From contig NW_025963902.1 of NCBI RefSeq assembly GCF_023055435.1, forward strand, positions 1,798,001-1,862,000: a stretch of 64,000 bases of DNA. The letters run 5' to 3'. Of this stretch, positions 7,402-62,147 are shown in pieces (the stretch's first letter is position 1; every line of letters begins with the position of its first letter). The notes beneath the pieces are model-generated. The model ran no database searches, was not told the DNA's origin, and saw only the letters and a list, made by a program, of their open reading frames with translations. This DNA comes from Haliotis rufescens (Eukaryota). The translations under genes were made by a program, and so were the position numbers.

Positions 7402-10400
7402 AAGTCTCCACTATCAAAACAGATGGAGAAAGGTGGGCTTGGTGTTAATTGATATGTACCTGTGAAGACAATGTTAACTTGAGCAATTGTTGCACGCCTG
7501 CGCAAAGTCATTGTATTGTGCGGATCCAATTTCAGTAACAATTTGCCAGTTACTTTTTAATTAACTGTAAATTATGACAGTAAAAGAAAAATGTAATTTG
7601 AACCTCAATTTTATGCTGGTTGGAAAAGTTCTGGGGTCCGTTCAACACAACAATCGTAGCTCTAACGTGACCATAACTTCCATTTTTAACAAAGACTTAC
7701 GACCATGTACATGACAATCGATAGATTCCACTTAAAGCAAATGATGTTGAACATTGCCAATTACACATCTGATGAATGATGGAAAAGTATTTATTTCGAG
7801 TATAGTAATGACATTCCGTATCAACTCTCAAACTGAACCGGTTTCGAGAAATGAATGCTAACCAGATGTTTCAGCGGGTTAGTTTTATGTAACATTTTGC
7901 CACATCTGTCTTCCAAAATGAAGGAACTATTTCGGTTTTAGCAATGTGGCCCAAATATTAAAGTTTTTGATACTGATTAGATGCGGCTGGAGTTTGATGC
8001 TCTGCACAAATATAGATTTGATTTATTTCTATTAATAATGATCTGTATATGGGTGAGTGGGTGAGTGAGTGTGTTATTTACAATCGTATTTTGGCAACAT
8101 CATGACTTGTTGGCTTCATGAGAAATCATACAACGGAGATGGGTCCCAGTCGTTTACCAGTCGCAGCGCATGGATCTGGGGCAGAGTTGTGGTTTTTGAG
8201 ACCGCTTGCTGCTCTGTCTGGGAAACTTATTTGCCCCATTGGAAAACCTGGCTAGAATAGATCCCCAGAAACATATAGGTAGCTATGCTGATCGAAAGAC
8301 GCGACATAATGGATTAGGTAGTCACACCTGGTTTGTGCACGTCATCATACGCCGACAGTGTCGATCGTTACTTAATAATATTGATCGCAAGATTGTCTGG
8401 TCCAGGCTCGATTATTCAGAGGCCGCGGCCATAGAGTTTAGTATTGCTTAGTGGGGCCTAAACAACAAGCAAAAGACAAACGACGTCACTTTGCTTTGAT
8501 TAACGTACCAAGGTCATGAACTGACCGTAGTGGACAATGCATAAGTCTTATTGAAGATAGGACCTTTATTGAGCGGACACTGGAAGACATGGACCATAGA
8601 GTTGGACCGTGTGTCCCGAACTCCGTGAATCGACTGCCCCCTGCGACTCCCACCGCGTCAGCTATACAAATACAAGAACATGTAACAGTCAATGTGTAAA
8701 ATGACTGAAATTTGCACTTAAGTGTCTTTTTACAATTATTGTTCTATTTCTTATACTATGGTAACGAACAAAAAACGTTCTTATTCTCTAATTCATCACC
8801 CTGTCGCTGAAAATGATAGGATTAAAAGAAATTAAACGAAAGTAATGTATATTTTTGAATTTTTTACTTCAATCTGAGCGTTGGGCGGTCGGGTAGCTTT
8901 GTGGTTAAAGCGTTCGCTCGTCACACCGAAGACCCGGGTTCGGTTCCCGACATGGGTACAAAGTGTGAAGCCCATTTCTGGTGTCCCCCGCCGTGATATT
9001 GCTGGAAAATTACTAAAAGCGGTGTAAGACCATACTAACTCACTCAGTCTAGGCGTACGTAATGAGTCCATTGTGATATTCATAAGCCAACATGCAAAGA
9101 AACATACAAAGTAAATATCATAAACCTAAAATAATTAACAATACAAGTATTCATACACACGGCACCAGGAGAGGAGCTGTATATACGCATTGTACACTCG
9201 AACAAAAATAGTTTCAGTTTAGTTTGACACAGTTTCCAGCAAAGACGAAAGCGTGATTGATATTATGAGCAATGTCCCGTGCCATCTTCGGATGATGTTT
9301 TGTTTGTTGTTTTACGCCGCACTCAGCAATATCTAGCTATAAGACTGCAGTCCGTAAATAATCGAGTCTGAAACAGACAATCCGGTGATTGACATCATGA
9401 GCATGGATCCAATCAATTGGGATACGATGACGTGCATCAATTCAAGTCAGCGAGCCTGACCACCCCACTCAGACTAAGTATACCGACTCCGAGCCGACCA
9501 GTCCTTGTTTTAGCCCCTTAATGCCGAGCGCCAAACAGGGTAACAACAAGTACCATATTAAACGTCTTTTGGCATGACGCGGCGGAGGATCGATCCCGGA
9601 ACTTCCGCTCTACCCCTAGAGGTAGGTACACGTAGGTGGTCTACATTAAACTATATAAAATGTTGAGGTGAGTAATGTCAAATATGCTTTCGCTGAATAT
9701 TGAGACATTCTGCGTGCTTCCACGGGGGAAATTTGCGAAATGAGTGGGTGTGTGGTTAGAAATAGGAGAATTTGTATTTGAGTCGAAAATGAAAGTAGAT
9801 AATTGTTCTTGTATCAATTTTACGCTTCCCACTTCATTGGAAAATATACGTGGTCCGTACACAAGTACCTAAATACACACATCCTAATACTATCAGGGCA
9901 ATGTGTGTGACGGCATGAAAATATATACAGTATGGAAGTGAATATTGACAAGTGTGATTGAGACATTCTGCGTGCTTACACGTGAGAAATTAATGAAATA
10001 AGTGATTAAATGGTTAAAAATAAGGAAAAGAATATATTGATGTCAACTACTTTATTATGAGGAACACAACGTTGAGGAGTATATACTTACTCCTTCGTCA
10101 GGTTTTCCTCACAATACAGAAGTTGACATTTATAAATTCTCTTCCTCATGGGTATCACTTTTAAATGCCTTTCAAAGGCTTGGGTAGAAATAGACTATAT
10201 ATTTGAGTGTAAAACCTAAAGAGATGATGCAAACTTGACTTTATCGGTATTAATTATAATTACCATTTCAAAGTAATATTTTTTACTAAAATTCACTTTA
10301 ACGAGGCAATGAAACATTAATCTATCATCATTGTGGGAGTCAAACTATGCATATTATGCTATCTAAGTTAAACTATTGCACGATATATTGTTATCCCCGT

Positions 10401-21566: not shown

Positions 21567-23127
21567 CTCGACCCTTGTGAGAGAAACAGGTCTGATTCGC
21601 AATATCTATATCGACAAAAGTCGACTGTCCAACGGCGGCGTTTACCGATGTTAATATAGTAACGGTTTAATGGCGTCGGCGTCAATACTAACTTGATGAT
21701 AATTGACGTGCTTCCATTGTGAATAACAGCCATTCCCACACATGCACAGCACGTGGACGTGATGATAATTGTTATGTTGCTGTAGAGACAATGCTGTCCT
21801 TTAACGTTATGATGGCTGCACCCATGCGCAATATCAATGTATTGTGCGGATTCAATTTCAGTGGCCATTTACTAACATTTTAATTAAAGGGAAAATTATG
21901 ACAGTAACAGACAAATGTTCATGCTAGTTTCAAAAGTCCTGGGGTCCGTTCCACAAAGCGACCTTCGCGCTCAGGTGATCGTAACTCCCATTCTTGAACA
22001 CAGACTGACGACTTCTGGGCATCAGTATTAATTAAGTGATTAAAACGCTCCACTATGTACGTGCCAATCTATAGATTTAACTTTAAGCAAATGATATTTT
22101 TTACATTGCCATTTTCGGATCTTTAGGGTCACTGCTGCGTCCAATCAGGTTGCAGCTATTTATTATATTTAACGGTAACTCATTAGTTATTGTACGTTTT
22201 ACACAGAGACAGATCAAACTCGATCTAAGTTATGGAAAGTAGAAATTACATTTTTATTTCAAACACAACTGTGGAGCTACCTCAGCCACTATGCATACAG
22301 ATCATAAGAAAGATGATTCAATCACATCGGTATTGGTGTATAAAGTCAAACAGCTTGATACAAACACAGCGTGGTGCAGAGCTTCATCATCCAGGCACAT
22401 TAATCAGCATAATAATGTTAAAAAATGTTTGGACCACAGAGCTAAATTGAATTAGTCCCTTCATTTTGGAAAACAGATTTGGCGAAATGGTACGTGAAAC
22501 AAACCCGTTCCAGTGCCTGGTTTGCATTAGACTTCTTGTCGATAATGGTTGCAATTTCAGTTTTGATAAGGAATGTTGTCATTGTTTGAAAATATTGGAA
22601 ACAGCTAAATAATGTTAATAATCAGAAAAGACCATGTTTGGTTGGATGTGATAAACAGGGTATGTTGTGTAAATAGGGTGTAAATATCGTGGAAAGTACA
22701 CAATAGTGTTAATATCGAATGAATTGTAAACATTATGCAACAGAATGCATTGGCAGCAATATACACGTGTTTATGTGTTTACATAAACGTGTGTGTTACC
22801 GATAGATGCATAGATGTCAAATCTTATAAACTTTTGCATTTCAAAAGAAAAATACAAAATATATTTTAAGCTAAAACATTTAAAATCCAAGTGTTTATAC
22901 ACAATATTAGAGGAGCTGTATGGATGCATTGCACACACTGATGAAACTAGTTTCAGTTCAGGTTGACACAGTTTCCAGCAGAAGACGAAAACGTGATTGA
23001 TATTATGAGCAATGTCCAAGCCTTCTGGTATTGTAACACTCAATGACCTCGTCCATTTGGTCGCCTTTAATGATCAGCATTGGTTACTGGAGACCAACTG
23101 GAACCCGGTATCCTACGTTTGACATTA

Positions 23128-26100: not shown

Positions 26101-29100
26101 ATAACAAGATGTAACTATATATATTGAACATATATAAAAAAAATATAGAAATAAAGACTTTATGGATAAACTTGAATAAGTGTTTATAACCTAAATAATA
26201 AATTTCATTGGTAGATAGTTACTAAGATTTAACCGCATAAGACTCAGAGCACAATAGTACAATATCATGTGAAGAATTGGTGTCAGTTAACAACTTGAGA
26301 TGAGATGCATGTCATGCAGGTAGTCATCAGAAATAATATCTTAACCATCAACCCAGATATCGTTCTTGTACATAAAGTCATTTGTGTTCTGGCTGACTAA
26401 ATCTCCTAAAAAACCAGCACACCATTAGCTAGGTCAGACCCACGGTACCATAATAGGTCTCCGGGGAGACAACATCAGACAAGCATGCAACTAGAAAGTG
26501 TTTTTACTCGTAAAAACATATGTCTCCCCCCACTCCCCTAACCCCCATTCATTCGTTTACTTCACGTTAAACCCCATCTCTTCATTCCCACCCTCCATTA
26601 CTAAAAAACAGGGACAAAAATAGAACTCCTAGAAATTTCAAACAACTAATGGGCACCACTTCAGTGCTGGGTTAATGTGTATACAAAGTTTCGCGAAAAA
26701 ATATTAAACGGTTTCTGAGTTATGGTCAGGAAACAAAGCTTACCCCCATTCAGAGTCTATGTTCAACTTATCTCCATGGAAACGAGAAAAAATAAAAATG
26801 TCAAAAATCTCTAAATAGCAAAAGCCACCACTTCAGTGCTGGGTTAATGTGTATACAAAGTTTCGCGAAAAAATATTAAACGGTTTCCGAGTTATGGTCC
26901 GGAAACCAAGCTTACCCCCATTCAGAGTCTATGTTCAACTTATCTCCATGGAAACGAGAAAAAATAAAAATGTCAAAAATCTCTAAATAGCAAAAGGCAC
27001 CACTTCAGTGCTGGGTTAATGTGTATACAAAGTTTCGCGAAAAAATATTAAACGGTTTCCGAGTTATGGTCCGGAAACCAAGCTTACCCCCATTCAGAGT
27101 CTATGTTCAACTTATCTCCATGGAAACGAGAAAAAATAAAAATGTCAAAAATCTCTAAATAGCAAAAGGCACCACTTCAGTGCTGGGTTAATGTGTATAC
27201 AAAGTTTCGCGAAAAAATATTAAACGGTTTCCGAGTTATGGTCCGGAAACCAAGCTTACCCCCATTCAGAGTCTATGTTCAACTTATCTCCATGGAAACG
27301 AGAAGAAATAAAAATGTCAAAAATCTCTAAATAGCAAAAGGCACCACTTCAGTGCTGGGTTAATGTGTATACAAAGTTTCGCGAAAAAATATTAAACGGT
27401 TTCTGAGTTATGGTCCGGAAACGGTGGGAACACCGACGCCGACGCCAACGCCGACGCCGACGGGAACCGTGCCAAAAACAATATGTCTCCCTCCATTCTG
27501 GGGGAGACATAATGACATAAGCTCGATAACTTTAAGTCTTTAACTAAATAGTGTTAGCTGTTACGATGTAAAAAAGAGATTGAATCTTACCAACTGAAAT
27601 AATGCATGAAAAGCAAAAAATAAAAGACACAACAGGTTGGTATGATCAAAAACGTGTATTCAAATTAACAATCAATATCAATGACAGAGTCACTATAGCT
27701 AATAGAACGGACAAGTCGCTGGTGCACAAGGTCACACGACATGATACAGAAGGTACAATGACAATACAATGATCCGATAACAACCTCAAAATGTTGACAA
27801 AGTATGCTGCACGTAAAAACCACAATCAGAATTCCCTGATTTTCTGTATCAAGAAGTAATCAGGAACAAATTGGACAAATATGAATTTTAAGATCTAAAA
27901 TCAACATCATGATAATACCTTCAACACAAACAGAAATGGCAATAATTTCAGTGTCAAGTATTACCAAGGAAACCATGAGTCAGAAACAAGCTCAGCTAAT
28001 GAGCAAGTGAGTATGGCTTTACGCATCTTCCCGAGGCAAGGGAGTTAACTGACTATAAGAGTCCAGTTTCCACCCTTGCCGAACTAGGCTGGTATCATGG
28101 AGTTACATTTTGGCTGGACTAACGAGTCTATGCATGGTCCAATCAAAATCGCGCTCCGAAATCGAAAACCGGTTCGCAAACTGTCATGTAGATTTCGGTC
28201 GATTGGAGGATTTGCAAAGCATGTGCACCGCTAACTCAACAGATATATTCTAAATCGTTTCATGTTTTTAATCAAGGTGCTCACGTGATTTGATGCACTT
28301 CGCGATGTAAGACTCGTTTTATCACAATATCAGATCGTCTTAACTGGGCGCCACCGTTTTGTTTGAAGCAAACGCAAGTGATACGAGAGGGGGAATCTGA
28401 TTGGTCCATAGGAGAGGCATAGAAGGAATATAACTTGTAATAGCCACTGGTGGTGGTACGATCGAGCCCAGGAAATTGAGCATAGCTCGGCAAGGGTGGA
28501 AACTGGATTTTTAAAGTCAGTTCACTCTCTCGCCTCGGGAAGATGAGCTTTACGCCGTGTTCAGCAATATTCCAGCAATATCATGGCAGGGGTACCAGAG
28601 ATGTGTTTCACATATTGTAACCATATCGGGATTCGAATCTGGGTCTTCGGCGTCCATCACTGGGCTACCCGATCGCCCCAGTTCAACTAATGATACCTTC
28701 TACACTAAAACCTCTACTGACAACAGGGAAAGTGTTTGCAGGTAAAGGACTTGCAGAAGCAGCACCACACAACCATTTCTAGAAGTCCCCAGAAATCATT
28801 CCATCCCAGTGTGATACAATTAACTTCCATTTAGTGAAATACATCAAGGATATGGACCTGTTCAGATGAGGATACTTCGCCTCAGGTCTCCAGCAAATGT
28901 CAAAACAAATTCACAAATGGGAATAGATATTTCCCACTTTCGTTTATAGTCATAACTAACTTAACTGATGGTTTGGTCAAGGTGACACATAATTCCCTGA
29001 CATCAGGACCAATAAATATGACAACAAGGAAGAGTCTTTAATGCTTAATTTTCATTGTTGCAGTGACTGATTAAAGTACCTCTGACAGTCTGAAAATAAG

Positions 29101-32100
29101 ATTTAAAAATATCAAAATCAAACAAAATGGTTTTTTTCCAAATTTGCCTGCTGCATGTCTTCTAAAACGGGGAACTATCTAAAACATGCACAAGGCATGT
29201 CTACTGTAATGACATCACTTCAAGTCGTATGACATGTCTGGTAAGGGAACACATGCAAGATGCAGTATAAGTTTTCACCAGAACACCCTATGACATTAAT
29301 AAGAATGTTATACATATTTTGATTGAATGATATCACTTAAGACTTGGTAAAAACATGTCAAACACAGTATTACTGTAAAACAGAAAGTCCTGTACCTCCA
29401 ACGACATTAACATGAAAAGTAAGTAAGACATCACTTTTCTGGTTGAATGAAATCACTTTTGGTTTGAAAAACACATATATTATCCAGAGATCCAACAAAT
29501 GTCCTTGGAGATATTGCTTTCCTGAAAACACATTGGTCAAATAATATTAGCATTAGTGTTAGGTTTAATTGTTCAAATCTATTTGTAACTATATTTTCCT
29601 TGAAAACACTTACATTTTATTCCATCAGTGCAATGACATGAGTGAGTTGTGTTTAGCGCCGCTTTTAACAGTCTTCAAGTTATCTCAGGGCGTGTCAGCT
29701 TAATGTGGGAGGAAAGCCCGAAGTGATGCAGGTCTAAGACGTTTAACACTTCCATGAAACCCACGAGCATGGGTATGGAGCTGACAAACCTAGAAACATA
29801 ATCGGGGCGAACCGGGATTCAGACCCACAATCATAGGTTTTTGGTGTACCAAAGGGACGCAACTCCGCACAGCGAATCGCGGCGACTGAGCCACCCGTGC
29901 CCCGCAATGACATGACGGTCAGAATACTGAACTAAAAGAACATCGTGCAGACTCCGAGTTTTGTCACATTTATCGACTTGTGTTGACATATAGACCCGTG
30001 AAGATCCGGGGTAGAATTGGTCTTCAGCAACCCATGCTTGTCGTAAATGGCGACTATGCGTGTCGTAAGAGGCGACTAACGGGATCGAGCGGTGAGGCTC
30101 GCTGACTTGGTTGATGCATGTCATCATATCCCAAATGCGTGGATCGATGCTCCTGATGTCAATGCCTAGATTGTCTGGCCCAGACTCGATTATTTACAGA
30201 CCGCCGTCATATAGCTGGAGTGCGGCGTTAAGCAACAAACAAAATGTGTTGACATATTCTATTCAAAAGAAGTAAAAGAACACTTGATTCTTTCATAAGA
30301 CTACAGCTTACCATCAGTTTTGATTTCAGACAGATTTGCTAATCATGTCTTAAACAGATGGTTTAACATCATTCAGAGAATCGAACTGTATCCCGTCATG
30401 AACTGAATTGTTATTAGCTGTCACTAGAATCAAATATTTACGATTTTATAAAGCGTTTTTGTACTTGAACTTGTAAGTCAGTTATAGATTTCTTAAAAAA
30501 GACAACTCTCATATATACGTAGTATTTCATTTGACAGTAATGTGGTCACTGGTCATTGTCACATTTGAGCAGATACTACCAGGATAAGTGCGGTATATAA
30601 ATGTATTATATTATAATAATAATTAACACTGTCAACATGGTCAAACCATGACAAATACTTGATTTTGTTATTGTTTCACTGAATACAATAAATGATACAT
30701 CAACTGCTGACTTGTTATCGTATTCATGAATAAATATTCATATTCGTTCCCTATATTCGTGATATGTATCCCATTCGCCACATAGTACATCCCTCCATCA
30801 CAGTGGCATTGATAAACCATACCTAGACTTCATGTCACAGTCATATGCAAAGAAATATTGTCCTGATATGAAAGGTGCAACGTCCAAGTAAAAGAGAGAA
30901 CTGGTTGAAGATAAGATGGATTCAGGTGCTTAGAGATTATCCCCAGACTACTGATAACCCAGGCACAACTTCCTGGAAATAAACATCCAGTGAACCAATG
31001 GAAGATGATTGGAGTGTGTAGGGGTGTGTGTGTTATGCTACAAATCTAAACTGCCAATATCAGAAGCAAAGAATAAAGATCTTAGATTCCTTGAAAAAGG
31101 AAAATTATCCCTGATGATTTCCAAGTATATTATGCTGCACTGCCATGTTCAAATGCAGAAAAAAACCAACTCTTGCTTCCAGATCATGATCATTTCAACG
31201 GCACCGATTCAGAATTGTGATAATTTGTCCTGTCACCCTTACTTATTCTTGTTAAGTAATGCGCATTCATTACAAGTTGAAATGCAGTCAGTTTTGAACG
31301 GACTCTGTGACTTTCAATGAAACAAGGTGCCATGTGTCAGTTCACACTTTGTTGACTATCTTCACCTTGCTGCGTTAACCCATCGATATGTCCAGTTTGT
31401 CTAACAACCTACACCTTTAAGTCCCTTTAAGGCTTCAGCTTCTTTCAAAAGGATGACCTTGACCCTCAATCTCAGTCCATCAATGGCTTGATTACTTCTT
31501 GTTGACACAGAACCCAAGATAACCTGTGCATTTATGTAAAATAAGCAAACAATTAACCAGTAAACAATTAATTTTGACCTTTTTGCAAAAAATATGCATG
31601 AATTTGTTTAAAAAAATATATAATTATATAACCATGTGATAACACTTTGCACTTTAACCTAATGTATCCTTTTCAACCCCTGTACCTGTATTTCATCACA
31701 GATTGTTAGTTCACTGATTGAAAGCACAGATACATTAAATTCTACTGCAGTGAATAATGCATCGACATTATAAAAGGGTACTTCATGCATATCACTGTCA
31801 TGGCTGCTGTTGGTTGTTAATGCAACATGTTGTACACCAGGTGTTGCACATGATGCAAATTAGAAGTCACCTGAAACAACATTTTAATCAATATTACATG
31901 AAAAATGTCCACAGTACTCATTGGTGTAAAAATACCCAACTGACTGGAATCAATGGACTACAAATATCCTGAGTTACCAAAGAAAACTATCAAATATGTG
32001 AATGCTAGCTTGTTGGTAAACGGGGGCATTGGTGGCCCAGTTGTCTATGGCACTGTGATTCGCTGTGCAGAGTTGCATCCCTTGGGCACACCAGAAACCT

Positions 32101-35100
32101 ATGATTGTGGGTTGGAATCCCGGTTCTCCCCGATGATGTTTCTAGGTTTGTCTGCACCATATCTGTGCCCATGGGTTTCACCAAAGTGGTAAACGTGTGA
32201 GACCTGCATCACTTCGGGCTTTCCTCCCACATTAAGCTGACAAGTCGTGATATAACTGGAATACTGTTAAAAGCGACATTTACACTCAATGGCCCAAACT
32301 ATTACCTGGAGCCCTGTGAAACTATGGTGCTAGTTTGTACAGACATCAACACAGTGGCTGAGTTAAGTATATGAAGAATCTGAACAACCAATGAATGACC
32401 ATTTAAGTAACCTTGACCCTCAATGACCACCAGAAGTATATGGACCAAATTTCATCCAAATGCAGTAAAGAATTCTTGTGTGTTGGACCATGTGCTTGTG
32501 GAGATAGGGGTTGACCTTCAATATCAGCTACATTTATTTCAAGAACAAGGCCAAGGATACCAACACATCAGCAAAATATGATGTCCCCAGGAGGAATTCA
32601 TTGCAGCAAAGCAATGTTGCATACAATAACAGTACAGTGATCCCTCGCTACAACGCTACCTTTGGGGTCCAAATTATCGATCAACGTTATGGACGTTATG
32701 TAGTAGAATGTAGATCCCCATGATTAACAACTGATATTCATGACAGAAGAATCCCTTGTCATACATGACTTCGATAAGTATTAAAATAATACAAACACTA
32801 CATGATAAGTTTTAGAAATATCAGGTGTTTTAGAGAAATGGCAAAAGCTCTTTATGAATGACCTTACACATTTTACATGTAGGCATGAAATGTATATGTC
32901 CTTGACCAACAGTAAGTCCACTTCTAGTTTGGCAGTACACAATTACTACATATCCAATGAGCACCTCAGCTATCTTGGTCATGCTAGGTGTTTAATAACG
33001 TTTTTATTCCATGACCTTGAGGATGAAATTGACCATTGACACGACAGACAAAGTGTCAAAAATATTTCTAAAGGCAATGAAGGAGATACACATGATATGA
33101 TATCCCTTAGATAACCAAGGTGTGTTGGGATTTTTTTTAAACAATAATAATTTGATCCAGAAAATACTGGAATTTGTGTTTTTTACCTTAGTTTATACAA
33201 ACAAAAACATTTAACTAGCCATACAGGATGTGGTAAATATGTTTATAATTTGAATGAAATGTGGGTCTTGATAAAGTGTGCTAAAATTTATTTGGTCTCA
33301 AACAAAAATTCAAGACCAGATACCAATTATCAAATGGCCGGTCCCTCAGTAAGAACAAAATGTTGAGATGGTAATGCATGCCGTCCAAGCCTCACACCAC
33401 ATTTATATCCTTCTATGGACCATGTCAACTGTGTTTGTGTCTTTTGTGTCTCTCCAGGAATCCTGATTTCTTAAATACTTTCCCACACACATCGCACTCA
33501 AATGACTTAACTCCGCTGTGATGCCGCCTTTTGTGTGTCTGAAGATTACTTGATCCTGTAAATGTCTTCTCACATTCATCACACTTGTAAGGTTTGACTC
33601 CACTGTGGCTCCTCATATGCATCTGCAGCTGCCCGGATGTTGTGAACGCTTTCCTACACTCACAACACTGAAAAGGTTTCACGCCACTGTGGCGCTTCAT
33701 GTGTACATTCAGGCTGCTCTTTTCCGTAAACCCTTTCCCACACACGCTGCACTTACAAGGCTTTTCACCAGTGTGGCTCCTCATGTGTATTTGCAGCTTA
33801 ATTGAACGTGCAAAGGCTTTCCCACAAACCCCACACTCAAATGGCCTGACTCCGCTGTGACCCTTCATGTGTTCCTGCAGGTTACCTGATCTTGCAAACG
33901 CTTTCCCACACTCACCACACACAAACGACCTGACACCACTGTGACACTTTGAATGTTTCTGTAGGTTACCTCGTTGTCTAAACCTTTTCCCACACTCTTT
34001 ACACTCAAAAGGCTCATCTGTCCTGTGACACATCATGTGCCTCTGCAGGTCACCCGATTCTGTAAAAGTCTTTCCACACTCATTGCACCCAAATGGCCTA
34101 ATTGTACTGTGACTCCTCATGTGTTTTTTAAGATTATGCGGAAGTCCAAATGTCTTCCCACATTCCATACACACCAAGTTAGATTTGACTGCACTGTGAA
34201 CAATCATGTGTCGAAGTAAATGGGCCGATTGTATGAACTTTTTCCCACAGTCTGTACACTCAAAGGGCTTGACTCCGCCATGACTGACCATGTGAGTATT
34301 CAAGTTGCTTGATTGCGTATATTTCTTCCCACACACTTTACACTCATACGGCTTCACTCCGCTGTGATACAGCATGTGATTCTGTAAGTTACTTGTCTGT
34401 TTAAATTTTTTCCCACACACTGTACATTCATAAGGCTTGAGTCCGCTGTGATTGAGCATGTGTATCTGTAAGTTACTGGTTTGTGAGAATGTTTTCCCAC
34501 ACTCAATACATTCATGAGGCTTGATTCCGCTGTGACACAACATGTGTGTCTTTAGGTGTCCTGATCTTTTAAATCTTTTCCCACACTCAGTACACTCATG
34601 CCGTCTTACTTCATGTTCCCTAGGATGGCTCCTTTCTAGCAGTTCTCCCACACATCCAGTGTCCTGGTCACTGAAAGAGTTGCTGATCTGAACTGGACTT
34701 GTTTCTGGCAGTTCTCCCACACATCCAGTGTTCTGGTCACTGATAGAGTTGTTGATCTGAACTGGACTTGTTTCTATAAGTTCACCCACACATCCAGTGT
34801 CCCGGTCACTGATAGAGATGTTGATCTGAACTGGACTTGTTTCTAGAAGTTCTCCCACACATCTAGTGTTCTGGTCACTGATAGAGTTGTTGATCTGAAC
34901 TGGACTTGTTTCTATAAGTTCTCCCACACATCCAGTGTCCTGGTCACTGAAAGAGTTGCTGATCTGAACTGGACTTGTTTCTGGCAGTTCTCCCACACAT
35001 CCAGTGTTCTGGTCACTGATAGAGTTGTTGATCTGAACTGGACTTGTTTCTATAAGTTCTCCCACACATCCAGTGTTTTGGTCACTGATAGAGTTGTTGA

Positions 35101-38100
35101 TCTGTACTGGACTTGTTTCTATAAGTTCTCCCACACATCCAGTGTTTTGGTCACTGATAGAGTTGCTTATCTGAACTGGACTTGTTTCTAGAAGTTCCCC
35201 CACACATCCAGTGTTCTGGTCACTGATAGAGTTGTTGATCTGTACTGGACTTGTTTCTAGAAGTTCTCCCACACATCCAGTGTTCTGGTCACTGATAGAG
35301 TTGTTGATCTGAACTGGACTTGTTTCTAGAAGTTCTCCATCACATCCAGTGTACTGGTCACTGATAGAGTTGCTTATCTGAACTAGACTTGTTTCTAGTA
35401 GTTCTCCCACACATCCAGTGTTCTGGTCACTGATAGAGTTGCTTATCTGAACTGGACTTGTTTCTAGGAGTTCTCCCCCACATCCAGTGTTCTGGTCACT
35501 GATAGAGTTGCTGATCTGAACTGGACTTGTTTCTAGGAGTTCTCCCACACATCCAGTGTTCTGGTCACTGATAGAGTTGCTTATCTGAACTGGACTTGTT
35601 TCTAGGAGTTCTCCCACACATCCAGTGTCCTGGTCACTGATAGAGTTGTTGATCTGAACTGGACTTGTTTCTGGCAGTTCTCCCACACATCCAGGATGTC
35701 CAGTTTTCTGGTCACTAATAGTGTCGCGGATGTGTACTGGACCTTGTTTTTCCATATTTTGGATATTACTGCCTTAAGTATCTAGCATGAACTTCAAAGA
35801 TGTGTTTTCCTTCACACATCTTCTTAAGTTGGTTCAGCACCACACATGAAACCAGCTTAAAACTGAAAAGGAACCACAGAAGTATATTATTATGATATTG
35901 ACATGATAACAAGTTGTAAGTTACATTGCAGAAATACCCCTGCTAGAGAGTGAGTAAGAGGGTGTGGTTTTATGACGCTTTTAGCAATATTCCAGCAATA
36001 TCCCGGTGGTGGACACCAGAAATAGGCTTCACATACTGTACCCATATGGAGAATTGAACCCAGGCCTGACAACGGACGCTTTAACCACTAAGCTACCCTA
36101 CCGCTCACCAGCTAGAGGAACAAATTAAATAACTGATTCTTGTCAGGAGTAACAGTTTACTAGTCACTGATAGCATGAACAAAGACTGTAGGTACATGAT
36201 AACACAAGATCACATGTTTAATCACATTACCCCAGGTCATTTGTTTGGTTCATGCAGCAGTAAGCAAATATTTCATTATTTTCACTGTGGCCCATAAACA
36301 TGATAAATGAGGGTGCCAACCCCTCCTGCCATGAAACCTGAATACCATCTAATTGCTCACTCTGAGTCTCATTGGCTTACCCCTAAATCCTGAATACCAC
36401 TTAACAACAAATTTCACCAACAAAAATTTATTGAAAACATTTCTGGGTCATATAGGGTGTGATTTGCAGTTAGATCACTTACGTACAACATTATTGCTAT
36501 TCTTTTTTAATGTTTAACCTCATAGCAAGTACTTATTGTATTTGCACCAATGGAACAAACACCGCAGAGACCCTCTACAAAGAACCTACCCGTGGAGATC
36601 TAGGTTAGAAGTATTGTGTACAGTCATTCATGTAATGCTGCTGCAACTCAGCTTGGAGAGGTGGGTGTTTGATGTTTGTTGTTTAACGCCACACTCAGCA
36701 ATATTCCAGCTATATGACAGTGGTCTGTAAATAATCGAGTCTGGACCAGACAATCCAGTGATTGACATCATGAGCATTGATCCACACAATTGAGATACAA
36801 TGACATGCATCAACCAAGTGAGCCTGACCACCCAATCCTGTTAGTCGCCTCTTACGACAAGCATAGTCGCCCTTTACTGCAAGTATGGACTGTTGAAGAC
36901 CTATTCAACCCCGGATCTTCATGGAGAAATGATTGAGTGAGAACAATTAACTGTGATAACAAATGCTTCCAAATGAGTGTACCACCTGTCCCAAAACAGA
37001 ATAATTTCAAGTCAGTGAGAGTAACTTAGTGAGTTCTCAGTGACAAATATAGGTATGTCTTTTGGAATGTTGCCATTTCACTTTCTTCAATCTTATCACC
37101 ATTGTAAGCATGATACATATACATAGTATAACTGACATATATATTCTGATAAGAAATACACTCATTATTCAGCGTGTTTGTGGTTGATTTTATTCCAATT
37201 AACATTGAAACCTCAAAGATACACATGATATACACATGATACAGGTTGAAGGGTTCCGAGCATGTGCATGACAGCCTTGGACCCCTCAAAATTTTCACTG
37301 AGTGTCCCTTGACTCAAAAATAGTTAGACCTAGGTAAATTGACAGTTTCACTTCAGAGCTTGTCATGACATTTCAACCGAACAATCCTTCCCCACCCCTT
37401 CTGTACTGCTGCCCTTGAAGATTCGGGTTAGAATATGTCTTCAGCAACCCATGCTTTGGTTGGGATTTGGTGGTCAGACTCGGTGACTTGTTTGATTGTT
37501 TCATATCCCAATTATGTGTATAAACGCTCATGATATCACTCTCTGGATTGTCTGATCCAGACTTGATTAATCGAAGGTAGCTTGAATATTGCTGAGTGTG
37601 TCATTAAACAACAAACAAAACATTGGTCTGCCATGTGTGTGTTACCTGACAAGTTATACATTTACAGGGTCAAACCTGGATTACAGCCTTACCAAGATTT
37701 TGAGCCAAGACAGGAGAAATGTCAAATGGGAACAACTGATTGGTCGATACAGATCCAAGACATCATCATGCAAATTCCCACACATCACAGGTGGGATCTT
37801 AAGGTTGGTCATGACAGCTATCATTGTATATTTAGCATTGTTATTGTCAAGTAATACCTCCAACTACGCCTTTACTAAAGTAATAAGCTGAGCATCAGGT
37901 AAATGATGGCCTCTGGCCTCATGGCAGTACTGGCCTCCAGGCAGTAATTGTTCAGTTATTTCTTAAATATTTAGTCTGAGGTACGACTAACTTTGGCTGT
38001 TGGCCTTGTTGTGGGCACAGGTACTACCAGATATCTTTTTGAATACACAAATGTACCCTAGCTTGGCAATATATTTACAGTACCATTTTCACAATGCATG

Positions 38101-48585: not shown

Positions 48586-48809
48586 GGAAGGGCAGTAATT
48601 GGGTTCGTAGAGAAATACGCACAGGTGAAATGGTACCTGCCTTGGAAACAAGGAGACTGTCAATGAGAACTATAAACATTCCTAGTTTGTAACTACTAAA
48701 TATTAAATCCATGATTAGAACATTCCCTATGGACAAAGCCGTCTGGCTATTATTGCCGGTAAGGGAGAGACGTGGGTTTACCGCCGCTTTGAACAGTATT
48801 TAGTCATTA

Positions 48810-49904
48810 TTGAGGGAGCTATCTGGCTTAAAAAGTGAGGGAGCTATCTGGCATAATAAGTGTGGGAGCTATCTGGCATAATTAGTGAGGGAGCTATCTG
48901 GCATAATTAGTAGGGGAGCTATCTGGCATAATTAGTGAGGGAGCTATCTGGCATAATGAGTGAGGGAGCAATCTGGCATAAAAAGTGAGGGGGCTATCTG
49001 GCATAATTAGTGAGGGAGCAATCTGGCATAATTAGTGAGGGAGCAATCTGGCATAATTAGTGAGGGAGCAATCTGGCATAATCAGTGAGGGAGCTATCTG
49101 GCATAATTAGTGAGGGAGCTATGTGGCATAATTAGTGAGGGAGCTATGTGGCATAATTAGTGAGGGAGCTATCTTGCATAATTAGTGGGGGAGCTATCTG
49201 GCATAATTAGTGAGGGAGCTACCTGGCATAATTAGTTAGGGAGCTATCTGACATAATTAGTGAGGGAGCTATCTGGCATAATCAGTGAGGGAGCTATCTG
49301 GCATAATTAGTGAGGGAGCTATCTGGCATAATTAGTGAGGGAGCTATCTGGCATAATTAGCGAGGGAGCTATCTGGCATAATAAGTGAGGGAGCTATCTG
49401 GCATAATTAGTGAGGGAGCTATCTGGCATAATTAGTGAGGGAGCTTTCTGGCGTAATCAGCGAGGGAGCTATCTGGCATAATTAGCGAGGGAGCTATCTG
49501 GCATAATTAATGAGGGAGCTATCTGGCATAATAAGTGAGGGAGCTATCTGGCATAATTAGTGAGGGAGCTATCTGGCATAATTAGTGAGGGAGCTTTCTG
49601 GCGTAATCAGCGAGGGAGCTATCTGGCATAATAAGCGAGGGAGCTATCTGGCATCATTAATGAGGGAGCTATCTGGCATAATTAGTGAGGGAGCTATCTG
49701 GCATAATTAGTGAGGGAGCTATGTGGCATAATTAGTGAGGGAGCTATGTGGCATAATTAGTGAGGGAGCTATCTGGCATAATTAGTGAGGGAGATATGTT
49801 GCATAATTAGTGAGGGAGCTATCTGGCATCATTAGTGAGGGCGCTATTTGGCATAATTAGTGAGGGAGCTATGTGGCATAATTAGTTAGGGAGCTATCTG
49901 GCAT
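48810..49904. repeat. 25-bp minisatellite, ~44 copies
   Basis: Unit agtgagggagctatctggcataatt, head-to-tail with no spacers. Confidence 0.96.
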
Positions 49905-50916
49905 ACGCCACACCTATTATATACACCCCTTTACTGTCGTGCTAGCAACATTCGCATGGTGTATGAAAATAAATTATAAGAAAGTGTTTATGAATAATAC
50001 ATATTTAAACCACGTGTTATATGTGACCACAATCGATCTGTTAGACCATGGCAATATGCCAGGTCAGGCATGTCGCTAAGACCAGCACTCGGAGCACATT
50101 CGTATCACACCAGGTAACCATGTAAACACAATCATAGCGTCCATAGCAACCAGGTGTAATGGATGTCGACCGATATCATATCAAGAAATTCAGATACTCG
50201 CAACACAACATGCAAAAAAACACTATTCCCTTTACCACGGTATGATGAGGTTATATATTGAGCTGCGTTTATGACCCCTTCGTTATACAACATGTGGTTG
50301 TTATCGCAATAACATACCTTGTCTCTCAGATCTGTGACTTGCATAAACTGTCCAGCCTTGGTGTGAGCGTGTCGGGCTGACAGAAATAGCTGTAAGATAT
50401 CCTCCCGTGCATCTGGGTTAAACTCCCTCGCGCAATGTTGTCCTAGCCATTCTACCCCGTGTACACTGAGAGTGTGCGACACCAAGGCTTAACCAGTCTA
50501 CGTCGGCAGTGCTCGAAACAAACAGGGCTGGGGCTAAATACAGCATTAGGACGCTTCTTTGCTTGTTGTGTAGAGCCGCTAGGGTTTATGTTATACATTT
50601 GCTAGTAAACGCATAATTCACACTGTGAGAATCTAAGGGTTAACAGGACAGGAAATTAAGTTGATCGGATTGACAAGCAGCGGGTATTGATTTCCTTCAT
50701 TGTTATGCAGAGTCGCTTGTGTTTGTCTTACATGTGTCAATAAACTATAATTAACACTACAGTATTTTAAGGGTTAACTGGACACGGAAGTCAAGGACGA
50801 AAAGGTTGACGAGTAGCGGATATTGACTTCCTAACAGACGTGCAGTGAATACCGTAAGTCTTGAAATTAATGCGACGCTTCCTTTAGTGTTGGTAGACAC
50901 CAGGGTTTGTGATAAT

Positions 50917-61371: not shown

Positions 61372-62147
61372 CAGGACAAAAGTGCAAATAAACCTTACCT
61401 ACACGCAACTTCGATATTTTGAAGACGATATTTGCATTAACGATGTAACGATCTATCTAAATCTGCAAAAAAATGTCTATACCAATGAGACTTGCACTTA
61501 AAGGAATTACTCATGGATAATTTACTTGAGGACACAAGAATTTGTCTTTGAAGATCCGGGGTTGAATAGGTCTTCAGCAACAAAGGTTCGCATGAGAGGC
61601 GACAAACGAAATCGAGCTAGCTGACTTTATGCATGTCATCGTATCCAAATTGCGTGGATGGATGCTTATGATGTCAATCACTGGATTGTCTGGTCCAGAC
61701 TCGATTATTTACAGACCGCCGTCATATAGCTGGAATGTTGCTGAATGCTGCGTTAAACAACAAATACAATAAACAAAACTCATGTATGACTTACTTCATT
61801 ATTTACTCACGTATCACTTACTTACGGACTTATTCGTGTCGGGGGCGGTCAGGTAGTCTAGTGGTTAAAGCGTTCGCTCGTCACGACGAAGACCCGGGTT
61901 CGATTCCCGACAAGGGCAAAATGTGTGAGAGCCATTTCTGGTGTCCCCCGCCGTGATATTCCTGGAATATTGCTAAAAGCGGCGTAAAACCATACTCACC
62001 CACTCACTCACTTAGTCGTGTCCTTTTATTGTTTCAGGTGAAGTCGGGGATTGGAAGAACTGGATAACAGTTGCTCAAAACGAAAGATTTGATGACGTCA
62101 TAGACCGAAACCTTGAGGGAACAGGCATTGTATTCACGTATGAATAG
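57072..62147 (+). CDS. Cytosolic sulfotransferase (SULT1-like), ~325 aa
   Basis: Exons 57072-57166 (tentative), 57302-57480, 57626-57949, 59698-59801, 60799-60964, 62038-62147, all GT-AG. Motifs YPKCGTHW, PRVLNSH, RNPKDVSVSY, FYENLK, YRKGEVGDWKN. Confidence 0.9.
58040..59200. repeat. Degenerate ~36-38-bp minisatellite in a SULT intron
   Basis: Consensus tgtctgaatgtgggtttaaacgctctgacgtgct(ct)gc, roughly 30 eroded copies. Confidence 0.85.
59820..60497. mobile_element. Foldback MITE (~100-bp arms) interrupted by the family-2 SINE
   Basis: tagtttaaggcttagatgacctgtgtcaacaagacct versus aggtcttgttgacacaggtcatataagccttaaacta. Confidence 0.82.
59999..60354 (-). mobile_element. tRNA-derived SINE family 2 (~355 bp; central domain resembles the MetaSINE/RUDI core)
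   Basis: Head gaccgcctccgtggtcttgtggtagagcg...ggttcgatcccc; core gtcataccaaaagacgttaaaagatggtacttg...ggcgctcggcattaa; (cacct)n tail; 13-bp TSD taaaaatgttgag. Other copies at about 16918-17310(-), 23401-23647(+), 24184-24455(-), 41023-41300(-) and 42437-42790(+). Confidence 0.88.
61303..61370. repeat. (TG)n microsatellite
   Basis: About 34 units. A (TG)n(CG)n(TG)n tract also lies at 16986-17049 inside a SINE. Confidence 0.95.
61841..62011 (+). mobile_element. SINE family 1 in the last SULT intron
   Basis: A/B boxes and tail; TSD actta(t/g)tcgtgtc. Confidence 0.88.

Follow-up and report, generated by a model that had tools for sequence, protein, structure and literature searches.

Contig NW_025963902.1 of Haliotis rufescens carries, within the 64,000-nucleotide stretch analysed here (positions 1,798,001 to 1,862,000; hereafter the window), a short retroposon that raises a simple question: how does an element without RNA polymerase III (Pol III) boxes acquire a precise 5' end? 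A preliminary description of the window had presented the first part of this short interspersed element (SINE), its head, as a candidate self-cleaving RNA. We find that the head is predicted to fold as an H-type pseudoknot followed by a stem capped by a T-loop-like hairpin. This module is real, it is more widespread than the preliminary description saw, and its identity is probably not that of a ribozyme. Our leading interpretation, in which we place a little less than even confidence and which rests on modelled structure, is that the head is a new kind of 5'-to-3' exonuclease-resistant RNA (xrRNA) that would stall XRN1/XRN2.

The element itself is a genuine, complete, non-autonomous retroposon of about 255 bp (29992..30244, + strand; the family's first base is G29993). 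It is flanked by a 13-bp target-site duplication (TSD), tgtgttgacatat, at 29979..29991 on the left and 30245..30257 on the right (both +). Its 3' tail (30203..30244, +), which in this copy has a short deletion, resembles that of a Nimb-type long interspersed element (LINE) and then runs into CAAA repeats, as seen when the near-consensus copy L017 is compared with the 3' end of the intact LINE L610. The duplication, the SINE-type tail and the missing A and B boxes had all been described and all stand. In L017, the sense strand upstream of the tail has no A-box match at up to two mismatches, a single B-box-like site with two mismatches lies about 150 nt into the element, and no A/B box pair is found; nor did we find a transfer RNA (tRNA) gene in the window. 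The family is large: its 19-nt motif GTCGTAARAGGCGACTAAV has 37,670 exact matches in the 1.33-Gb genome, against 0 for the reversed control. We sampled 60 of these matches from the start of contig C1, and the alignment begins at consensus position 4 or earlier in 42 of them; where TSDs define the start (n = 21), it falls at +1 in 12 copies and between -4 and +4 in 19. Copies picked by body sequence only (30, overlapping partly with another sampled set) start at position 4 or earlier in 19 cases. The precise 5' ends first noticed in four window copies therefore hold genome-wide.

What kind of RNA begins at this boundary? Heads whose stems differ widely in sequence were collected by pattern scans (at least 122 metagenome stretches, 7 GTDB contigs and 9 viral contigs), and 29 single natural sequences, 23 non-viral and 6 viral, were chosen by eye as family representatives. 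A free-geometry parse mis-parsed several sequences, and we used instead a fixed geometry: S1 of 4 bp, one base, S2 of 7 bp, 0-1 base, S1', a loop ending AGAAYW, and S2'. At least 9 of the 11 pairs form in 26 of the 29 sequences, and the fit is better than 500 shuffles of the 5' part (p<=0.05) in 19, including all 6 viral records. In a swap test on 26 sequences, which compares the pairs formed with a sequence's own partner to those formed with the partner of another sequence, S2 keeps 6.31 own versus 4.06 swapped pairs of 7 and S1 keeps 3.85 versus 2.90 of 4, with exchanges such as C-G/G-C and G-C/C-G/A-U. For the pairings proposed in the preliminary description the results divide. The gaagatc/ggtcttc stem was borne out. 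The closing stem gacccgt/acgggatc and the pairing of the loop with accc can form in the window copy, but across the same 26 sequences they give 3.46 own versus 3.51 swapped and 3.42 own versus 3.48 swapped pairs; covariation thus supports S1 and S2 and not these two.

In the window copy (all on the + strand) the 5' strand of S1 occupies 29994..29998, its CCCG core at 29995-29998 pairing with the CGGG of the 3' strand at 30007..30010, and the 7-nt 5' strand of S2 (30000..30006) pairs with 30019..30025. Between them L1 is the single U29999, a U in 25 of the 26 fitted sequences at a position outside both the search patterns and the fit score. L3 (30011..30018) ends in the conserved AGAAU(A/U), and in other families its 5' part accommodates insertions of more than 130 nt. 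These proportions, with a single base spanning the 7-bp S2 and an A-rich loop running along S1, are those of a classical H-type knot. S1 begins at the 5' end of the element or 1-2 nt inside it. The minimum free energy fold of the single window copy is not better than that of shuffles (z = -1.0) in ViennaRNA, whose model does not include pseudoknots.

The knot is followed by a second domain (30030..30083, +) made of P3 (ccc at 30031-30033 with ggg at 30081-30083), an internal loop and a doubled 22-nt unit. The two copies of the unit form the hairpins GUCG-UAARA-GG-CGAC at 30040-30054 and 30062-30076 (+), followed by UAA at 30077-30079; this gtcg-taagagg-cgac hairpin plus taa is as previously described. 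P3, which joins the accc segment to the ggg after UAA, is weak in the swap test (4.69 own versus 4.25 swapped) and shows some clear exchanges, for example CCUGG/CCAGG versus CCAGG/CCUGG. The search design fixed the GUCG/CGAC stem, which therefore adds no covariation support. The terminal hairpin G-UAARA-GG-C, of which UAUGA and a following G-to-A change are variants, fits the T-loop motif, U-N-N-R-A plus two bases, and is probably a T-loop. The tandem doubling claimed earlier is real; what is doubled is only the 22-nt hairpin unit, not the whole module. The unit is doubled in 50 of the 60 sampled copies, single in 6 and otherwise arranged in 4, and doubling marks the main SINE subfamily. In seven other loci (L369, L372, L395, L419, L422, L066 and L162) the whole head or the 22-nt unit is tandemly repeated at the 5' end, with at least five tandem units in L419, possibly through template jumping.

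A head of this kind has a history. The SINE is a member of an already described group, the LP-SINEs of molluscs. Described from gastropods and bivalves, these have their first ~70 bp in common with Nimb-17_LMi, I-3_DR and RTE-9_CPB, and they include the abalone families Hdi_LP and Hmi_LP (Matetovici 2016, PMC4758252). Our element has the same build, a LINE-homologous ~70-bp head in place of a tRNA head and Pol III boxes, TSDs and short 3' tandem repeats. In supplementary figure S2 of that paper the scallop head has the same AGAAU and UCGUAAGAGGCGACUAA blocks, and S1 and S2 can be fitted to it by eye with different pairs; no Hdi_LP sequence was found in the portions of the supplement searched. 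The head is thus already published as a sequence domain, named LP for LINE promoter, which in part answers to a refuting condition of the preliminary description, a match to a promoter or RNA family already described. The available text proposes a promoter function and does not contain the fold, the virus cases or the ribozyme tandem described below. These three were also not found in our search of Rfam and the literature (Repbase, Dfam, subscription papers and bioRxiv supplements lay outside it), and a literature text search with the head motif in DNA and RNA spellings returned no match; PMC4758252 is the only description of the head that we found. That paper left the partner LINE unidentified. 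Here the SINE head matches the head of the intact LINE L611 (80% over 60 nt, E 1e-10), the SINE tail matches Nimb-type LINE 3' ends, and the same module begins intact Nimb-type LINEs of the same genome. The partner-type LINE has an open reading frame (ORF) 1 with a CCHC zinc knuckle and an ORF2 of APE-RT-RNase H layout, which places it, to judge by domain layout and by PMC4758252, as I-group/Nimb-type. Because the tail microsatellites differ (CAAA in the SINE, CACT in the LINE), the actual partner is probably a relative of the LINEs that we sampled. The earlier claim that a structured, pseudoknotted RNA head, common to other elements without long terminal repeats (non-LTR elements), stands in place of a Pol III promoter is upheld.

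Does the head work as a promoter? The 2016 proposal, made with Pr77 of L1Tc cited as a parallel (PMC4758252), would make it an internal RNA polymerase II promoter, and a dual promoter and RNA role such as that of Pr77 would be compatible with the fold. Its position at the 5' end, its invariant blocks, the absence of Pol III boxes and a +1 G in several families, which may be cap-derived, are all as this proposal would have them. To our knowledge, no function of the LP head has been tested since 2016 in the literature that we found. The 5' boundaries speak differently. Intact LINEs that lack the ribozyme described below start one base before CCCCG, at a U extending S1, as read from TSDs in L606, L607 and L609, three of the four such LINEs fetched; the fourth, L608, is interrupted and has no credible TSD. 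In 16 metagenome copies with an expanded loop, 75-157 nt separate the head from AGAAU, and their flanks diverge (a matter of flank divergence, not of TSDs) about one base upstream of CCCCG. Because these copies still diverge about one base before S1, the 5' boundary appears to track S1 pairing and not the spacing to conserved motifs, unlike a core promoter, for which a distance from 5' end to conserved blocks that varies by >130 nt is a difficulty. The stems, moreover, covary as RNA pairs, and transcription of the LINEs with the ribozyme starts upstream of the module. Of all the accounts that we weighed, we regard the promoter as the least probable.

A more direct way of making a precise end is to cut. 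Rfam, searched with the window copy and a set of 29 loci (one of which, L330, repeats L087), has no family that matches the module, and the hammerhead, twister, twister sister, pistol and hatchet models give no match to it at E<=10 for the window copy and at E<=1 or E<=0.5 for the loci, in keeping with the preliminary description, which could not fit the fold to the HDV, hammerhead, twister or pistol consensus. Fits to twister and pistol tried by eye were rejected. The likeness to pistol, which we take to consist of a 5' H-type pseudoknot, an A-rich linker and a GCNU-like stretch before the hairpin, stops at connectivity, which differs; the GCG positions vary here (GCAU, GCUU, GCUG, GGAU), and a cut at the pistol position would lie 3' of the head, which would be lost. 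Nor does the module have the nested double pseudoknot, the L3 YCNYGY and the J4/2 C of ribozymes like that of hepatitis delta virus (HDV), and its helix order differs. There remains a new self-cleaving ribozyme, cutting just 5' of S1 and HDV- or hatchet-like in outcome. Precise ends at S1, invariant unpaired residues and a compact fold would all suit it, and ribozymes are known both at non-LTR 5' ends (PMC6765202; PMC5786205) and in the untranslated regions (UTRs) of linear RNA viruses (PMC13725137).

What speaks against cleavage is the sequence upstream of the module in most LINE copies. Beside the module in one LINE, Rfam first flagged an HDV-like fold; in these LINEs it scores 27.5-30.5 bits with RF02682, below the gathering score of 44. 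On inspection it is a 58-nt, canonical-looking, putative HDV-like ribozyme with P1 of 7 bp including G1-U, P2 of 7 bp, P3 of 3 bp, L3 UCCUCGU, P1.1 and J4/2 GCUAA. Among 30 LINE matches to a distant ORF1 protein query, ribozyme and module follow one another with no spacer in 23; of the other 7, one is truncated within the ribozyme, 4 have the module as their first part and 2 have no head. The 23, L610, L611 and L612 (on C124, C13 and C112) plus 20 more, are young intact Nimb-type LINEs with the compact ribozyme at their start. The TSD abuts ribozyme G1 in 3 of 3 copies fetched. A selection of 30 copies based solely on downstream sequence has G1 as the starting point in 26, a position within the ribozyme in 1, and the module in 3, which are one triplicated locus. 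If the module efficiently cut, or started transcription, at its own edge, the ribozyme would be lost each cycle, yet it is retained, which argues against either activity; and it is kept with both the UAA and the CAA variants of the module, so that the retention does not reflect one dead variant. Self-cleavage of the head is therefore disfavoured: the LINEs keep the ribozyme upstream and their insertions start there, and the module also lies inside virus 3' UTRs, where cleavage at the start would sever the terminus. The first base, furthermore, varies among G, A, U and C. A new ribozyme thus strikes us as improbable.

The comparison with HDV-like ribozymes of R2, L1Tc (Pr77) and RTE is instructive all the same, for these too are short 5' modules, common to unrelated LINE clades and their non-autonomous partners, with precise 5' ends; the present module, in contrast, lacks the P1/P1.1/P2/P3/P4 order and has a separate HDV-like fold directly upstream in most LINE copies. 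Nimb is not among the six ribozyme-bearing clades listed in PMC5786205. The 5' UTRs of the ribozyme-bearing LINEs are 77-99% alike or unalignable, and a ribozyme-plus-module head on unalignable UTRs suggests head swapping. Among 30 of 67 matches to module variants in the abalone genome that were viewed, only SINE copies were found. In three small-RNA runs of one study, 32 reads map to the SINE and 190 to the LINE head; sense reads do not pile up at the 5' end, and the LINE head has antisense pile-ups only. One antisense 31-nt small RNA with a 5' U (L612:491-521; 127 molecules, one run) spans the LINE-head pseudoknot and is Piwi-interacting RNA-like.

The module is not confined to retroposons. 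We found it in 8 IMG/VR contigs, 7 of them distinct and six of the seven small. The viral records include contigs with RdRP_4 (L094) and RdRP_3 (L098), with tetravirus-like (L092/L097) and nodavirus-like (L096) capsids, with an S-domain capsid (L568/L600/L614, for which an RNA genome is an assumption), and with an unclassified polymerase-like ORF (L091), whose protein has no Pfam or PDB match and whose relatives lie on contigs of 4-6.7 kb. Each of the six small contigs has the module on its coding strand, at a distance of 6-123 nt from the preceding last stop and 89-183 nt short of the end of the record; two records, L091 and L600, have it in tandem. A DNA-level promoter cannot account for the contigs with RNA-dependent RNA polymerases. 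Two of the nine viral pattern matches, L095 and L099, had no pseudoknot and were set aside, and looser viral scans (34, 70, 16, 60 and 17 stretches) yielded one new record and mostly chance matches. Annotated phage records gave no module match, and there was no convincing prokaryotic case: the 7 GTDB contig matches, all inspected, are all repeat-, SINE- or LINE-like, and matches in prokaryotic metagenome-assembled genomes were rejected as probable animal contamination. Four of the GTDB matches (L324, L329, L327 and L328) are animal-type SINE or LINE sequence in bacterial assemblies, and in two of these it adjoins bacterial genes at the contig end; contamination or chimeric contigs are the probable cause. 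The eukaryote-only spread points to a host factor.

We favour, tentatively, a block to 5'-to-3' decay. The elements would be transcribed from outside promoters as longer read-through transcripts, and a nuclease would chew these 5'-to-3' up to the knot, leaving a precise, protected 5' end on the SINE or LINE RNA; the T-loop would dock on the knot and brace it, and a Nimb-type LINE protein would copy the surviving RNA via the shared tail. In copies that have the ribozyme, its cleavage would create the 5' end, a 5'-OH, which is not an XRN substrate, with the module as a second barrier. In viruses the module would yield a short non-coding 3' RNA. A nuclease block would account at once for ends at the base of S1, the insertion-tolerant geometry, the survival of the upstream ribozyme, and the position and duplication in viral 3' UTRs.

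Known xrRNAs offer partial precedents. They are generally located in viral 3' UTRs (PMC10321173), and in plant-virus xrRNAs Xrn1 stops at the base of P1 and the core contains a T-loop (PMC12397905). The class 3 xrRNAs of dianthoviruses, poleroviruses and ST9a (PMC12397905) share with our module the 3' UTR location, a pseudoknot, which covariation and shuffle tests support here, a T-loop and an end at the base of the first stem. In class 3, however, the T-loop sits inside an apical loop that the pseudoknot joins to a 3' segment, whereas in our module S1 of an H-type knot is made by the 5'-most bases, and the T-loop-like hairpin lies downstream as a domain of its own, so that the head does not have the class 3 topology. 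The coremin xrRNA-C, a small H-type-like pseudoknot that requires a downstream hairpin and starts a few nt into 3' UTRs (PMC10321173), is a precedent in build; on inspection the head has neither its YGAD loop nor its CUAC spacer, S2 here has 7 bp, and the sequence of the downstream hairpin is conserved. If the head resists Xrn1, then it would, on its modelled topology, represent a new xrRNA class. The wider proposal, that this class moves as a module among the LINEs and SINEs of animals and RNA and DNA viruses that are unrelated, and that controlled decay is a third way to define a retroposon 5' end, we hold more tentatively still.

Several points weigh against exonuclease resistance. Plain frameshift H-type pseudoknots fail to stall Xrn1, even with an added hairpin (PMC10321173), and a ring around the 5' end is, for this modelled head, hypothetical. 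Several SINE families start with a G just before S1 that could be a copied cap. A seventh viral case, L093 (IMGVR_UViG_638276288_000001, a 212,482-bp DNA virus), is intergenic: its module follows a stop by 121 nt and precedes an ORF that by eye is kinase-like and has no Pfam match. The fold itself has soft spots, in that the invariance of GUCG/UAARAGG/CGAC and of AGAAU was selected by the search patterns, many of the 29 fitted sequences are related and the swap statistics ignore kinship, about three best fits (L201, L326, NimbL328) are probably in the wrong register, and two viral records form only 3 of the 4 S1 pairs. Finally, the HDV fold has been proposed to protect the 5' end on its own (PMC11331408); a nuclease block would be redundant behind the ribozyme, and retention of the module there would be better explained by a second function, for example in translation.

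Translation is the alternative to which we give most room, unlikely as we consider it to be the answer. The module would be a cap-independent translation enhancer or a ribosome- or eIF-binding element. LINE RNA left uncapped by ribozyme cleavage would recruit the machinery through it, as would viral RNA from the 3' UTR, while SINEs would use it to reach nascent ORF2p at ribosomes. This explains why the module is retained behind the HDV-like ribozyme across LINEs with diverged or unalignable UTRs, and it fits the position right after viral stops and the eukaryote-only occurrence; plant-virus 3' translation enhancers occupy similar places. Taken alone, however, it does not account for SINEs and LINEs without the ribozyme beginning at the base of S1, and the module is kept, with covariation, in many SINE families that are non-coding. 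The two functions may coexist in one RNA. Conservation behind the ribozyme would likewise follow if the module were a protein-binding site that makes integration finish at the knot, through ORF1p/ORF2p packaging, second-strand priming, or a viral replicase or capsid, and the R2 protein does bind a pseudoknotted element RNA (PMC12222951). The carriers of the module, however, have no protein in common: they comprise LINEs of the Nimb and RTE types (PMC4758252) and viruses whose capsids and polymerases are unrelated. In copies with the ribozyme, moreover, the insertion ends 58 nt upstream of the knot; we doubt this account slightly more than we doubt a new ribozyme.

The other copies in the window qualify what had been said of them. 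The four starts that had been taken as common agree within ~7 nt, and only the copy at 29993 retains a complete first stem. The second copy (36668..36925, -) has the doubled hairpin unit and an incomplete S1 5' strand. The older copy at 37411..37620 (+) keeps the pseudoknot region with its gtcg hairpin deleted, and that at 61547..61775 (+) has no S1 5' strand and a single degenerate hairpin; a decayed fragment at 23060..23108 (-) is head only. Chimeric SINEs at 1660-1823 and 9298-9461 (-) combine the body and tail of this family with a foreign 5' part that, compared by eye, resembles a published MESC/tRNA SINE. Further SINEs of the tRNA type, for example at 61842-62010 and 29660-29901 (-), have tails similar to that of the LP-type SINE, and one lies ~90 bp upstream of the 29992 retroposon. 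Elsewhere the window contains a threefold segmental duplication of ~7 kb within 1-21700, an 84-bp repeat resembling a C2H2 zinc-finger array (33445-34625, -), and tandem arrays of 172, 69 and 25 bp (26616-27431, 34495-35829 and 48681-50000).

These results bear on how LINEs without promoters and SINEs without Pol III transcription gain 5' ends that are full-length, precise and stable. If the nuclease block is true, a device common to retroelements in host genomes and to unrelated viruses would extend xrRNAs beyond viruses, and it would mean that RNA modules trade between transposons and viruses. Should the head instead prove to be a translation element or a ribozyme, it would still be a structured RNA that belongs to no Rfam family and that numbers tens of thousands of copies per genome.

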